Below are positions 40,001 through 43,000 of a stretch of DNA of 64,000 nucleotides, piece by piece. The stretch covers positions 1 through 64,000 of the forward strand of contig JBKPAK010000156.1 of assembly GCA_046726415.1 (NCBI GenBank), in the 5' to 3' direction. The stretch is from Candidatus Methylomirabilota bacterium. GTDB taxonomy: Bacteria > Methylomirabilota > Methylomirabilia > Rokubacteriales > CSP1-6. A program made the position numbers. The number at the start of each line of letters is the position of its first letter. Position 1 is the stretch's first letter.

Positions 40001-43000
40001 CGCCGTCTTCCGGCCGGGTCAGATAGTGGCCCCAGAACCACGCCATGCCCGCACGAGTCAGGATGGGGCCGGCCTCGTATTCGCGGTACGACGCCGTATC
40101 CCAGCGATGGTCGGTGACGGGATAGACGAGGATCTGCAGGCCCGGGAGCGCCGCTCCACGATCGCGCGCCATAAGGGAGACAACCGCCGCCAGGTTGCCG
40201 CCGGCGCTGTCGCCGACCACCGCCAGACGGCGCGCATCGATCCCCAGGCGAGCGGCGTGGGCCAGCACCCACTGCCACGCCGCGAAGGCGTCCTCCGAGG
40301 CCACGGGGTACTTGGATTCCGGGGCCAGCCGGTAGTCCACGCTAACCACCGCGCACCGGGCCGCATTGGTGAGCGAGCGGCACACGCCGTCATGCGTCTC
40401 GAGGTCGCCGATGACCCAGCCGCCGCCGTGATAGAAGACGACGCCCGGATGGAGACCCGGACCATCCGGTGAGTAGAGCCGCACCGTGATCTCACCGCCG
40501 GACACCGGCACGCGGTGATCCGTCACCGCCGCGACGTCATCGAAAGGCCCGAGCACAGCGGTACGCGCGCGCATGACGTCCCGCGCCTCGGCCGGCGTCG
40601 ATTCCTCCACGGGTTTGAGATTGAGGGCCGCCATCGCATCGACGATCTTCTGAGCCTGCGGATCGAGCGGCATCGTGGCCTCCTTCGTCGGCGCCCCGCG
40701 CTTCGTCTGATGGTCCGGCGCCAGCGAGCGGATGATAGGTTGCCGGCGGCAAACCGGTCAAGGCACCGGACGCGGCGGGTTTGTGGTGCGCGATCCGGCG
40801 GGGCGATCTAGGGTCGAGGAGGGTCGTGGGCCAGTGTGGTGAGACTGACCCACGACCGGATGCTCAGCGCTTCTTGCGCTTCGAAATGCTGGCGGGCCAC
40901 GCCGCGCGAGGCCCCTCGTCCGTCTGGAAAAGCGTGGTGCCCTTGGACACCTTGGGGTGCGCTCTCTTCTCGCGCCGGCGCACCTGCGGCGAACTCTTCG
41001 TCGCGGCGGGGGGCGCGCCGGCCTTCGGCGAACGCGCCTTCCTGGCGCGCGACGTCGCAGGCGACTTCATGGCCCTCTTCCTCGAGCTTCGCATGACGAC
41101 ACCACTCCTCTCATGCCGTCTGTGGACGGCGGCGCTCTTCGATGGCCTGACACTCGACACAGTAGCGCGCGGTGGGCATGGCGCGCAGGCGGGCGAGCGG
41201 GATCGGACGCGCGCAGGCCTCGCATATGCCATAGATGCCGACGTCCAGTCGGACGAGGGCGGCCGTAACTTCGTCGAGCTGGTGCCGTTCGCGGCCCTCC
41301 AGGCGCGACAGGGTGTCGGCCACGTCCTGCACGGGCACATCCTCGAGCGGATCGCCCGGCTGGTCTTCCAGTGATGCCAGCTCCTCGCCAGTGATCGCGA
41401 CCGTGCGCGCGAGCTGCGCCTGTGCCTGCAGAAGGCGCTTTCTGAACTCCTCGACCAGCGCGGGACCGGCCTCGCTCACGGCGGACCTTCCCCGCCGGGC
41501 GGGCGCACCGTCATGACCGGACAGGGCGCCACGCGAACGATGCGGTCGGCGACGCTGCCGAGGAATAAGCGACTGAGCCCACCCCGGCCGTGGGTACCGA
41601 TCACGATCATCTCCACATCCGGGTCCTCGGCGGCTCGGAGGATCTGGTCGACGGCCACCCCGGAGCGAATGTCGGCATGGGCCGATACGCCCTTCGCGCG
41701 GATCTCGGCGGCGCGGGCGGCCAGGGTTGTCTCCGCCCAGACCCGCTGCGCCTCGTATACCTGGCGCGGCTCGACCAGGCCGCGCATCCCCTCGTTGTAG
41801 AGGGGAGCTTCCACCGATACGTGAAGGAGCAGGATCTCGCTTCCGAGTCGGCGCGCGAGCTCGATCGCCGCGTCTTCGGCCCGCTTCGCAGGCTCGGAGA
41901 AGTCCGTGGGCACGAGGATCTTCGCCATTCGTCGTCCCTTCGCAGGCGGTCGGCCGGGACACCCATGCCGCCAGTCCATCCGCCGCACGTATAGTACGGC
42001 ACGTGGTGAGGTCGTGCAGCGGCGCGGCAAGTGCCGTTGAACCGCGGCCCCAGGCCGGGTAGGCTCATCTCGGGATTCCGAGCGATGGCGAAACCTGTCT
42101 CGAGCAAGCGCGAACCCTCGTCGCGAGGCCCAGCTCTCGTTGAGCCCGTAGCACGCCCGGACTGGTTGATCGTGCTGCTGGCCGTAGCCGGTCTGATCGT
42201 CAGCGGCTATCTGGGCTGGTTGAAGGTCCGCGGGGGAGGCGCGCTCCTCTGCGAGGCCGGCGGCGGCTGCGATATCGTCCAGGCCAGTCGCTATGCCACG
42301 ATCCTCGGCGTGCCCACCGCTCTGTGGGGTAGTGCCTTCTATGCCGCCATCGGCACGCTCGCCGGCCTCGGCCTGTCGGCCCAACGCTGGCTCTGGGCGT
42401 TCCTGCTCGCAGCGGGGGGCGCCGCCTTCTCTCTCTATCTGACCGTCATCGCGCTGCTGGTCATCGGCGCCGCCTGTCCGTACTGCCTGGCGTCGGCGTC
42501 GATCGCGGTCGCCCTGGTGGCGGTGATCCTGTGGCGCCGTCCGACAGTCAGGGGTCGGAGGTCGCCACTGCGTTGGTCGCGCATTCTCCCGCTCGGAGGC
42601 GTGGCCGCGCTGATCGCGGTCGTCGGCGGGGCGGCGGTCTTTGCCTCCTACCCCGGGGGGGCCTCGGCCTATCAAACAGGTCTCGCCCGTCACTTGGCCA
42701 AGATCAACGGTGTGATGTATGGCGCCTACTGGTGACCCGCCTGCAAAGAGCAAAAGGCCCGGTTCGGGCCGGCCGCCAGCGAAGTACCCTACGTGGAGTG
42801 CGACGCGCGGAGTATCGGCGCACGGCCCGACCTCTGCAACGCCCTCGGCGTCCGCGCGTACCCCACCTGGATCATCGGCAACCAGCGCCTTGAGGGCGTG
42901 TTGACCTTGGAGGAGCTGGCCCGACTGTCCGGCTTCCCGGGAACATGAGCAACGCACGCGGGATCGTGGGGCTAGGGAAACGTCGGTGAATCGCCAGTTT

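Follow-up and report, generated by a model that had tools for sequence, protein, structure and literature searches.

Gene organization and start codon

The window analyzed here, a stretch of 64,000 nucleotides at the beginning of contig JBKPAK010000156.1 from a Candidatus Methylomirabilota bacterium, encodes a vitamin K epoxide reductase (VKOR)-like membrane protein at 42085..42948. All features described below lie on the forward strand. The reading frame comprises 287 codons plus a terminal TGA stop and contains a single internal in-frame TGA at 42733-42735, corresponding to residue 217 in the context YGAYW-U-PAC, where U stands for selenocysteine (Sec). Orthologue ends coincide and use TGA, TAG or TAA, which identifies the second TGA (42946-42948) as the true stop. 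Contigs from three public soil-metagenome runs (X1, X3 and X5) span 42733-42735 with no other letter listed, so the internal TGA is not an assembly slip; a contig from a further run (X2) stops at 42441, short of the TGA. Of the three covering runs, X1 may be the source. Among the 22 runs listed as containing the stretch, none was an RNA run.

An earlier note on this DNA had left the start codon uncertain. The ATG at 42085..42087 is now supported by the two same-genus orthologues (L025 and L026), both of which begin with MAKP, as does the protein described here, and both of which carry in-frame stops 8-9 codons 5' of this start. In the window, the frame is open further upstream to a GTG at 42031, a start without any support. 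Neighboring genes encode a divergent universal stress protein, a DksA/TraR zinc-finger protein, a cation-efflux protein, DoxD/DoxX, DUF2064 and an esterase. No disulfide-pathway partner was found among the adjacent genes and the gene neighborhood thus adds nothing to the assignment.

Domain architecture

The protein had been described as a VKOR domain fused to a C-terminal thioredoxin (Trx)-like domain, an assignment with which both sequence and structure comparisons agree. Residues 28-285 align with the VKOR of Synechococcus (3KP9/4NV2/4NV5/4NV6, E about 9e-40), and the isolated Trx-like domain of that protein (3KP8) is matched at E 9e-25. An AlphaFold model of the protein (pLDDT 83.6) shows five transmembrane helices and a domain with Trx fold, in which residue 217 lies directly N-terminal to a helix formed by residues 218-226. 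The PDB entries that match the model best are again 4NV5, 4NV6, 3KP9 and 4NV2 (TM-score 0.58-0.66) as well as 3KP8, the latter being matched by Foldseek with a TM-score of 0.90 and an rmsd of 2.8 over 93 columns at 49% identity.

Profile searches place the protein in the VKOR family. The Pfam VKOR match reported earlier was recovered (PF07884, residues 27-147, E 9.9e-24, 84.4 bits against a curated cut-off of 27.5), and scanning the genome with the same profile gave 87.3 bits. The Thioredoxin match across the TGA site (PF00085, residues 210-265) is as weak as had been noted (E 0.0018) and its 18.7 bits stay below the cut-off of 23.5, so that membership is not established by profile; the fold is still thioredoxin-like, as judged from 3KP8. 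With respect to NCBIfam, the previously noted match to NF011480 ('VKOR family protein') does exist (E 3.9e-12, 46.7 bits) but does not reach the 120-bit equivalog cut-off, and the protein is a relative rather than an equivalog of this entry. No DSBA or Thioredoxin_4 Pfam match was obtained at E up to 1. The protein would work like a DsbA fused to its oxidase, yet it lies outside the DsbA family (PF01323 / Thioredoxin_4).

The four-helix VKOR core corresponds to residues 27-147 (42163..42525; model helices 27-49, 78-94, 99-127 and 132-150). It contains the periplasmic loop pair Cys56/Cys62 (42250..42270), equivalent to Cys50/Cys56 of Synechococcus VKOR in alignments with 3KP9 and 4NV6, and the membrane CxxC Cys131-Pro-Tyr-Cys134 (42475..42486), equivalent to Cys130/Cys133 and presumed to be the quinone-reducing center. 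All four cysteines are invariant in 48 homologues, in which S68, aligned with Ser62 of 3KP9, is nearly invariant as well (90% or more). The protein therefore carries the hallmark residues that PMC4555152 lists for the VKOR family: a loop Cys pair, a conserved Ser/Thr and a CxxC starting helix 4. Following the core, an Arg-rich loop (RRPTVRGRRSPLRWSR) precedes a fifth transmembrane helix in the model (residues 164-188, 42574..42648), which corresponds to TM5 of 3KP9 according to the alignment and PMC4555152 and is predicted to return the chain across the membrane to the Trx-like domain.

This last domain (residues 195-285, 42667..42939) was delimited by the sequence and fold match to 3KP8 and by the order of strands and helices in the model. 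Within it, the resolving cysteine of the UxxC motif, Cys220 (42742..42744), is invariant in 48 aligned homologues and encoded by TGC in 137/137 unique sequence contexts collected with a search pattern that permitted only TGY. A second cysteine pair, Cys239/Cys251 (42799..42837), is likewise invariant in the 48 homologues, present in Synechococcus VKOR and probably forms a structural disulfide. Pro260 (42862..42864) of the Y-P-T-W sequence occupies the cis-proline position of the Trx fold; P260-T261-W262 are invariant and align with the YPTW of 3KP9, consistent with a cis conformation of Pro260. In Synechococcus-type fusions, a Trx-like domain bearing a redox motif and a YPT (cis-Pro) loop lies C-terminal to the fifth transmembrane helix, and the present protein shows this arrangement with UxxC in the place of CxxC.

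The internal TGA aligns with a catalytic cysteine

The TGA at 42733..42735, the first codon of U-P-A-C, aligns with Cys209 of Synechococcus VKOR and hence with the first residue of the Trx CxxC motif, in agreement with the proposal that the first active-site residue is Sec. The residue found at this site in non-TGA orthologues, not read until now, is Cys in 23/23 fetched loci (CP[HAVR]C, CSAC or CAHC), and Cys is also present at the site in the full-length database homologues that were read (CPHC 69, CPAC 16, others). Downstream of the TGA, Pro +18 is kept in 136/137 contexts while being encoded by CCG (88), CCC (33), CCA (11) or CCT (4); Cys +22 is encoded by TGC (103) or TGT (32), and Asp +23 by GAT (74) or GAC (53). 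This synonymous variation at +18 to +23, together with the shared end of the orthologues, argues that the frame 3' of the TGA is translated and under protein-level selection.

Gene callers nevertheless stop at this codon and shorten the product to 216 amino acids (stored as P0008), and the products of relatives likewise end at ...YGAYW. Taken literally, these annotations describe a VKOR of 216 residues and five helices that lacks a partner domain, with the next 213 bases being a decaying or separately used remnant. Such a product would resemble actinobacterial VKORs, which have a fifth helix and no Trx-like domain according to PMC4555120, and separate Cys-type DsbA-like proteins encoded in the genome could act as its partners. 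However, the frame is open to the same end in all TGA forms with mostly synonymous variation, the TGA aligns with a catalytic Cys, and a fragment beginning after the TGA would, based on the model, miss strand 210-213 and the first redox residue. In addition, the hairpin described below is conserved in TGA forms only, and a remnant would not be expected to survive in five or more families of the class. True termination at residue 217 as the sole outcome is consequently considered very improbable, and the calling of genes of this type as truncated 216-aa VKORs appears to be a systematic annotation error.

A conserved SECIS-like hairpin follows the TGA

The hairpin that the earlier note had mentioned downstream of the TGA was located at 42756..42770 (GGCCC-GGUUC-GGGCC). 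It folds into a 5-bp stem capped by a loop of the type RGUUC, thus presenting a G (GU) in the apical loop, and is separated from the UGA by a 20-nt A-rich spacer (CCCGCCUGCAAAGAGCAAAA, 42736..42755). In bacterial SECIS elements, the spacing from UGA to loop is usually about 16-37 nt. Two further TGA-containing genes of the same genome show hairpins 13-17 nt after the UGA whose loops also begin with G.

The large site sets were collected with the fixed peptide pattern U-P-[AV]-C-x-[DE]-Q-[KQ]-A-R-F-G-[PS] and are therefore informative solely at synonymous positions. At exactly these positions, which the pattern left free, the hairpin codons are frozen (GCC 135/137, CGG 137/137, TTC 137/137, GGG 136/137), whereas conserved Gly codons outside the hairpin vary (GGC 114, GGT 11, GGG 7, GGA 4). 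In the spacer, Gln is encoded by CAA in 116/137 unique contexts and Lys +4 by AAA 55 vs AAG 20 times; the preference is reversed for the Lys codon at +25 (AAG 62 vs AAA 7). All 5 stem pairs are possible in 126/127 unique TGA forms vs 1/22 Cys forms, the sole Cys form keeping the hairpin being that of the same-genus relative L026. Variants preserve pairing, as C-to-U changes result in G-U pairs (GGGTC 56/127, GGCTC 2/127), and a G-to-A change observed in one locus (L242) lies in the loop. Stem pairs are otherwise almost invariant, with G-C to G-U changes only and without two-sided covariation.

The conservation of the hairpin is far beyond chance. Its folding energy, calculated against shuffled sequences over 76 nt, is unremarkable for GC-rich DNA (z -0.37). 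No SECIS family was hit when 42000-43100 was compared with Rfam (E up to 10), the only two matches being at chance level.

Selenocysteine machinery and DsbA-like proteins of the genome

The genome encodes a complete set of Sec components, all four scoring above their cut-offs: selB, selA and tRNA-Sec (selC) are found together on one contig (C313), and selD carries a TGA of its own. Across the phylum, selB was found in 43/45 genomes with the TGA form, 41 directly and two (G241 and G014) as split matches beside selA. Neither selA nor selB was found in the remaining two TGA-form genomes, G085 (95% complete) and G044 (81%). Since selB is nearly universal in the phylum (218/251 genomes, including Cys-using genera), its presence does not discriminate between the TGA and Cys states.

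UGA followed by C is generally a leaky stop context, and a reassigned code or read-through by a near-cognate tRNA might in principle place Trp, Cys or Gly at this codon; alternatively, the TGA might reflect a sequencing artefact or a pseudogene. Yet TGA serves as a stop in this genome, as the same gene and many surrounding open reading frames end with it. Homologues carry Cys at the site and never Trp or Gly, the Sec machinery is complete and the hairpin is specific to TGA forms, while an artefact is at odds with the TGA recurring in contigs from three runs and across 127 unique sequences. This group of explanations is accordingly the least probable of those considered, slightly behind true termination.

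The genome (98% complete) encodes one VKOR together with DsbA-like proteins of both the Sec and the Cys type, and a DsbB was not found in it. In the gene for the Sec-type DsbA-like protein (FTDYQ-U-PYC, contig C120 of genome G000), a hairpin follows the UGA at a distance of 17 nt. Sec-type VKOR and Sec-type DsbA-like proteins do not strictly occur together: two genera (g34 and g45) possess Sec-type DsbA-like genes alongside a Cys-type VKOR, and many genomes encode a DsbA-like selenoprotein with no VKOR match. Co-evolution of the two is thus not claimed.

In bacteria, Sec insertion competes with termination. UGA 217 might therefore act as a selenium-dependent switch that yields the fused VKOR–Trx protein when selenium is present and, when it is lacking, a stand-alone five-helix VKOR serving separate DsbA-like proteins. 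The coexistence of Sec- and Cys-type DsbA-like proteins with a single VKOR and no detected DsbB would suit such a scheme, and the truncated form would share the architecture of functional actinobacterial VKORs as portrayed in PMC4555120. The truncated form would, however, bear an unfolded Trx stub (residues 189-216), and Sec as a better catalyst explains all data without invoking a switch. We regard production of both forms as unlikely, if somewhat less so than simple termination. The best explanation of the locus is that it very likely encodes a 287-residue, disulfide-bond-generating inner-membrane selenoprotein of the Synechococcus VKOR–thioredoxin type.

Distribution of TGA and Cys forms

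In a sample of 101 genomes of the taxonomic family, 44 had a match, and the 40 full-length rows comprise 30 with one TGA, 9 with none and 1 with TAG. The earlier statement that most orthologues of the family have the TGA is thus upheld, whereas the share given with it, 18 of 20, is replaced by 30 of 40. Among 251 Methylomirabilota genomes, the TGA occurs in 45/78 full-length orthologues, and TGA forms were seen in no fewer than five families of the class. VKOR–Trx orthologues and paralogues of the Cys type from this phylum are 48-76% identical to the TGA form and share its length and motifs; they have TGC or TGT for TGA, mostly as CPHC, and lack the hairpin in 21/22 cases, although the closest of them keep the KARFG peptide and one (L026) also the hairpin.

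A quick maximum-likelihood tree of 67 unique rows, from which 32 duplicates and six loci with split or partial matches (L026, L047, L103, L089, L066 and L081) were left out, requires at least 4 changes between Sec and Cys, only 1 of which is forced by well-supported branches. Because its root is set by distant paralogues, the tree shows neither an ancestral Sec nor an ancestral Cys state. Beyond the phylum, the census relied on the downstream-peptide pattern, which overlooked at least one genuine variant (L242, Arg to Gln) and is blind to Sec-type VKORs of other phyla that use different SECIS elements.

Relationship to known systems

The closest characterized relative is the Synechococcus VKOR–Trx fusion (3KP9, 3KP8, 4NV2, 4NV5, 4NV6), which shares architecture and length with the protein described here at 33-35% identity over the whole chain. 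The two differ in host (Cyanobacteria vs Methylomirabilota) and in the redox motif, the Synechococcus protein having Cys209 in CPHC where the present gene has a TGA, UPAC and a SECIS-like hairpin. Two known selenoprotein families, both listed in Table 1 of PMC13188914, have comparable Sec sites. DsbA-like selenoprotein form 1 (UxxC, PF01323) likewise represents the Trx-fold thiol oxidases that act outside the cytoplasm and has Sec at the first position of UxxC, but it consists of a single domain, soluble or anchored, with a helical insert, whereas the present Trx domain is fused to its own re-oxidizing membrane enzyme. The thioredoxin selenoprotein (PF00085, UxxC) shares the Trx fold and a Sec that opens the redox motif where a helix begins. 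In its classical form it acts as a reductant in the cytoplasm, while the domain found here is extracytoplasmic, minimal (about 90 residues) and VKOR-fused.

As the earlier note had stated, VKOR has no entry in the 119-family selenoprotein table of the 2026 review (PMC13188914), and our literature searches likewise found no paper linking bacterial VKOR and Sec. We judge the protein to be a genuine, previously uncatalogued selenoprotein, with selenium insertion inferred from the features above, and it would add a family absent from the current 119-family catalogue. Until now, DsbB and VKOR have been regarded as enzymes that work with cysteine; here, a natural Sec version would carry Sec at the very residue that forms the inter-domain mixed bond. 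Natural Sec and Cys forms share 72-76% identity, and a homologue has been crystallized while trapped in the relevant states; together they offer a comparison system in which one can ask what Sec gains in an oxidizing thiol-exchange relay. In ecological terms, the protein would connect the supply of selenium with protein folding in the envelope of uncultured bacteria that are abundant in soil and groundwater.

Proposed mechanism

We propose that SelB carrying Sec-tRNA(Sec) binds the hairpin at 42756-42770, leading to insertion of Sec at codon 217 instead of termination. By homology and in the model, helices 1-4 would form the quinone-binding VKOR bundle that holds Cys56/Cys62 and Cys131/Cys134, and helix 5 would take the chain back out, thereby placing the Trx-like domain outside the cytoplasm. 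Judging from the structures of the Synechococcus homologue, an oxidized Sec217–Cys220 selenenylsulfide would first accept two electrons from the cysteine pairs of exported proteins, converting them to disulfides. The Sec217 selenolate would then attack the Cys56–Cys62 disulfide to give an inter-domain Se–S bond, analogous to the Cys50–Cys209 inter-domain disulfide of Synechococcus VKOR seen by Li et al. (as described in PMC4555152). Lastly, electrons would pass to Cys131/Cys134 and on to a membrane quinone. Such a three-step relay would place Sec at the one residue that shares in every intermolecular and inter-domain exchange step.

Sec has a low pKa and is highly reactive as nucleophile, electrophile and leaving group, and its general chemistry should speed exchange at residue 217. 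A selenenylsulfide should, on the other hand, be less oxidizing than a disulfide, so the benefit of Sec in an oxidase is not self-evident. The in-frame TGA and its Cys counterpart, the translated frame behind it, the conserved hairpin, the Sec machinery and the fold are seen directly in the data, whereas selenium insertion, the substrates, the choice of quinone and any gain in rate are inferred.

On a more speculative note, extracytoplasmic disulfide formation in this organism and many of its Rokubacteria/NC10 relatives might run on selenium as a whole. In that case, each transfer of electrons between folding proteins and the quinone pool would proceed via Se–S rather than S–S intermediates, and oxidative protein folding would depend on selenium supply; termination at UGA 217 might provide a stand-alone VKOR as a low-selenium fallback. 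We consider this broader scenario doubtful. Two observations point in this direction: the only VKOR/DsbB-class enzyme found in the genome would need Sec at the inter-domain relay position, and a DsbA-like oxidase of the same genome is also a UxxC selenoprotein.

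A probable selenocysteine codon within a VKOR–thioredoxin fusion gene

The VKOR–thioredoxin (Trx) coding sequence (42085-42948, + strand) is a single frame of 287 codons with one internal in-frame TGA at codon 217 (42733-42735, context YGAYW-U-PAC) and a closing TGA at 42946-42948. Judged from sequence, the full-length product is very probably a VKOR–Trx enzyme with selenocysteine (Sec) at UGA 217, as the earlier note had proposed; four independent lines of evidence point this way: a Cys counterpart, translation downstream of the codon, a SECIS-like element and the presence of Sec machinery. 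In the table 11 ORF list the frame appears only as a 234-aa ORF running from GTG 42031 to the TGA at 42733-42735, and the product in public protein collections (P0008) is a 216-aa protein with the C-terminus …YGAYW. The internal TGA reported at first reading is indeed present and single, and it is reproduced in contigs from three public soil-metagenome runs, which span the site and show no other base there; the window may itself derive from one of these runs. The start codon had been called uncertain; ATG 42085 is now supported, because both same-genus orthologues begin with MAKP, with in-frame stops lying 8-9 codons farther upstream. Orthologue C-terminal ends coincide at the second TGA and are followed by TGA, TAG or TAA, which marks it as a normal stop codon.

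Homology and predicted structure

Pfam VKOR matches residues 27-147 (E 9.9e-24) and Pfam Thioredoxin matches residues 210-265 weakly (18.7 bits against a cut-off of 23.5), in agreement with the domains originally assigned. The NCBIfam VKOR equivalog match that had also been listed exists, but scores below that model's cut-off, and no NCBIfam selenoprotein model matched the U217 protein in the profile search. Residues 28-285 align with the Synechococcus VKOR–thioredoxin-like fusion (3KP9, 4NV2, 4NV5, 4NV6; E about 9e-40), and the isolated Trx-like domain 3KP8 aligns with E 9e-25. Based on alignment to the 3KP9 set, the loop pair C56/C62, S68, the membrane CxxC C131/C134 and U217 correspond to Synechococcus Cys50/Cys56, Ser62, Cys130/Cys133 and Cys209, respectively. 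An AlphaFold model built from 48 sequences (mean pLDDT 83.6) consists of five membrane helices and a Trx fold, with residue 217 directly preceding helix 218-226. Synechococcus structures were the top Foldseek matches (TM 0.58-0.66), and comparison with 3KP8 gave a TM of 0.90 (rmsd 2.8, 93 columns). An Arg-rich loop ahead of helix 5 and a Lys/Arg-rich N-terminus are consistent with a cytoplasmic location of both, which would place the Trx domain outside the cytoplasm.

Cysteine counterparts and translation past the TGA

Among the first 30 family orthologues, the aligned codon is TGA in 24 and TGC/TGT in 6. The earlier note had left open which residue the non-TGA orthologues carry; with further loci added, it is Cys in 23/23 non-TGA loci. 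The full-length database homologues examined likewise have Cys at the site, the motifs among 120 being CPHC (69), CPAC (16), CSHC (6), CPRC (6) and others. Downstream codons were compared across 137 unique 120-nt contexts among the matches listed. Within this set, conserved residues after the TGA are encoded by varying synonymous codons, for example at Pro +18 (CCG 88, CCC 33, CCA 11, CCT 4) and Cys +22 (TGC 103, TGT 32).

A SECIS-like hairpin and the Sec machinery

The downstream hairpin mentioned at first reading could be located at 42756-42770 (+ strand; GGCCC-GGUUC-GGGCC), beginning 20 nt past the UGA. The pattern used to scan genome and metagenome collections specified the peptide but allowed any synonymous codon for A-R-F-G. 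Among the matches listed, these codons are nearly invariant (GCC 135/137, CGG 137/137, TTC 137/137, GGG 136/137), whereas other conserved Gly codons of the same sequences do vary (GGC 114, GGT 11, GGG 7, GGA 4). The variants GGGUC (56/127 unique TGA forms among the matches listed) and GGCUC (2/127) keep the stem through G-U pairs, and a single G-to-A change (L242, Arg to Gln) sits at the loop start, thereby defining a 5-bp stem with an RGUUC loop. All five stem pairs are possible in 126/127 unique TGA forms among the matches listed, compared with 1/22 Cys forms. The sole Cys form with an intact hairpin, GGCCCGGTTCGGGTC, is locus L026 from the window's genus (genome G059; TGC, motif CAHC), which suggests a recent change from Sec to Cys. 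The match to this locus breaks into two frames around residue 241; the gene is possibly frameshifted or mis-assembled. The spacer between UGA and hairpin is A-rich, which is unusual for this genome (CAA 116 versus CAG 21 among the matches listed); Lys codons in the same matches are AAA 55 versus AAG 20 at +4 and AAG 62 versus AAA 7 at +25. The folding energy of the hairpin is unexceptional at this GC content, no two-sided covariation was found in the stem across the 127 unique TGA and 22 Cys forms, and the hairpin region has no Rfam match.

In the window's own genome (98% complete), selB, selA and tRNA-Sec share one contig. Its selD (C223:11994-12938, +), the known Sec-containing selenophosphate synthetase form, has an in-frame TGA of its own (…SCAG-U-ASK), with an 8-bp hairpin 13 nt after it. 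A DsbA-like (Thioredoxin_4) gene (C120:11329-11955, −; L250:1483-2109), which belongs to an established family of DsbA-like selenoproteins, has an in-frame TGA (FTDYQ-U-PYC) and the hairpin CCAGC-GGUC-GCUGG 17 nt downstream. Both hairpins have G-first loops. In two incomplete TGA-form genomes, neither selA nor selB was found. A second DsbA-like paralogue of the window's genome (C293:1261-1692, +) has a normal CAFC motif and an in-frame TGA at VV-U-DFPL, off the redox motif and at a position that is Lys or Arg in paralogues; this TGA may reflect a pseudogene, a sequencing error or another cause.

A possible selenium-based disulfide relay

In the Synechococcus enzyme, according to an extract of PMC4555152, a Cys50–Cys209 disulfide is seen in the crystal structure and electrons travel from the Trx-like domain to the loop cysteines, the CxxC and quinone. 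By homology, the Trx-like domain described here would oxidise cysteine pairs of exported proteins, and electrons would then pass through C56/C62 and C131/C134 to quinone. Sec217 would take the place of the single residue that acts as both attacker and target in each intermolecular step, forming Se–S bonds with Cys220, substrates and the loop cysteine. From general Sec chemistry, the likely gains from Sec217 would be quicker exchange and a fully ionised nucleophile. The genome encodes one VKOR and five DsbA-like proteins, one of them the UxxC selenoprotein found widely across the phylum, and no DsbB was found in it; much of the disulfide relay may thus be selenium-based. Phylum-wide, 197/251 genomes have a DsbA-like match, with most of the best rows TGA-bearing, and strict co-occurrence of Sec-type DsbA-like and Sec-type VKOR genes is absent. 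The neighbouring genes (41114-41928, −, and 43018-45081) encode a divergent universal stress protein, a DksA/TraR zinc-finger protein, a short cation-efflux family protein, a DoxD/DoxX membrane protein and a DUF2064 protein, with no disulfide-pathway gene adjoining.

Precedents exist for VKOR–Trx fusions, for Trx-fold UxxC selenoproteins and for DsbA-like selenoproteins. A 2026 review (PMC13188914) lists 119 families or subfamilies of prokaryotic selenoproteins; its article text contains none of the terms VKOR, vitamin K or DsbB, in line with the reported absence of VKOR from the 119-family table. Term searches likewise found none of these in the searched text of a 2022 review (PMC9312934), and no selenocysteine in that of a VKOR phylogeny paper (PMC4555120). 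As previously noted, no bacterial VKOR–Sec link was found: openly accessible full-text literature yielded only papers on ferroptosis or unrelated subjects. Relatives are named 'vitamin K epoxide reductase family protein' or 'uncharacterized membrane protein/glutaredoxin'. Judging by the literature searched, Sec had not previously been seen in a VKOR/DsbB-class enzyme, and current catalogues lack this selenoprotein family. Mechanistically it is well placed, and both natural Sec/Cys pairs and templates for its structure are available; specialists would, though, expect a selenoprotein of this kind (Trx-fold UxxC).

Distribution

VKOR–Trx matches occur in 96 of 251 Methylomirabilota genomes. The 78 full-length rows comprise 45 with one TGA, 32 with none and one with a TAG outside the trimmed protein; the TGA, described earlier as conserved in most orthologues of the family, has a phylum share of 45/78. 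Three partial rows also carry it. The TGA form is found in families f1, f2, f3 (partial), f8 and f10, while all 21 genomes of genus g37 have Cys. Four rows are distant Cys paralogues (35-37% identity, one in G134), and Sec-type and Cys-type genes coexist in some genomes, e.g. G132. Small-genome members of f8 (L231 and L242 of G132; L229, L230) carry the Sec-type gene and a Cys-type paralogue 35-37% identical to the window protein. In f1, 88/158 genomes gave no VKOR–Trx match to the query used, though most have the DsbA-like selenoprotein. A quick tree requires at least four Sec/Cys changes and does not fix their direction.

Pattern-match record titles name Candidatus Rokubacteria or Methylomirabilota, including NC10- and Methylomirabilis-labelled genomes. 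Other phylum labels occur on 4/44 stretches, whose sequences are nearly identical to Rokubacteria ones. Four oddly labelled TGA-form genes (L073, L075, L083, L085) come from MAGs assigned to Thermodesulfobacteriota, Kiloniellaceae, Actinomycetes and Acidoferrum; L083 has almost the same sequence as the Rokubacteria-family orthologue L033, and mis-binning or mislabelling seems likelier than transfer. The metagenome pattern scan returned at least 120 stretches. The exact sequence of the window, whole or in part, occurs in 20 runs from 19 studies; most are soil metagenomes, one is a rhizosphere metagenome and two lack an organism label.
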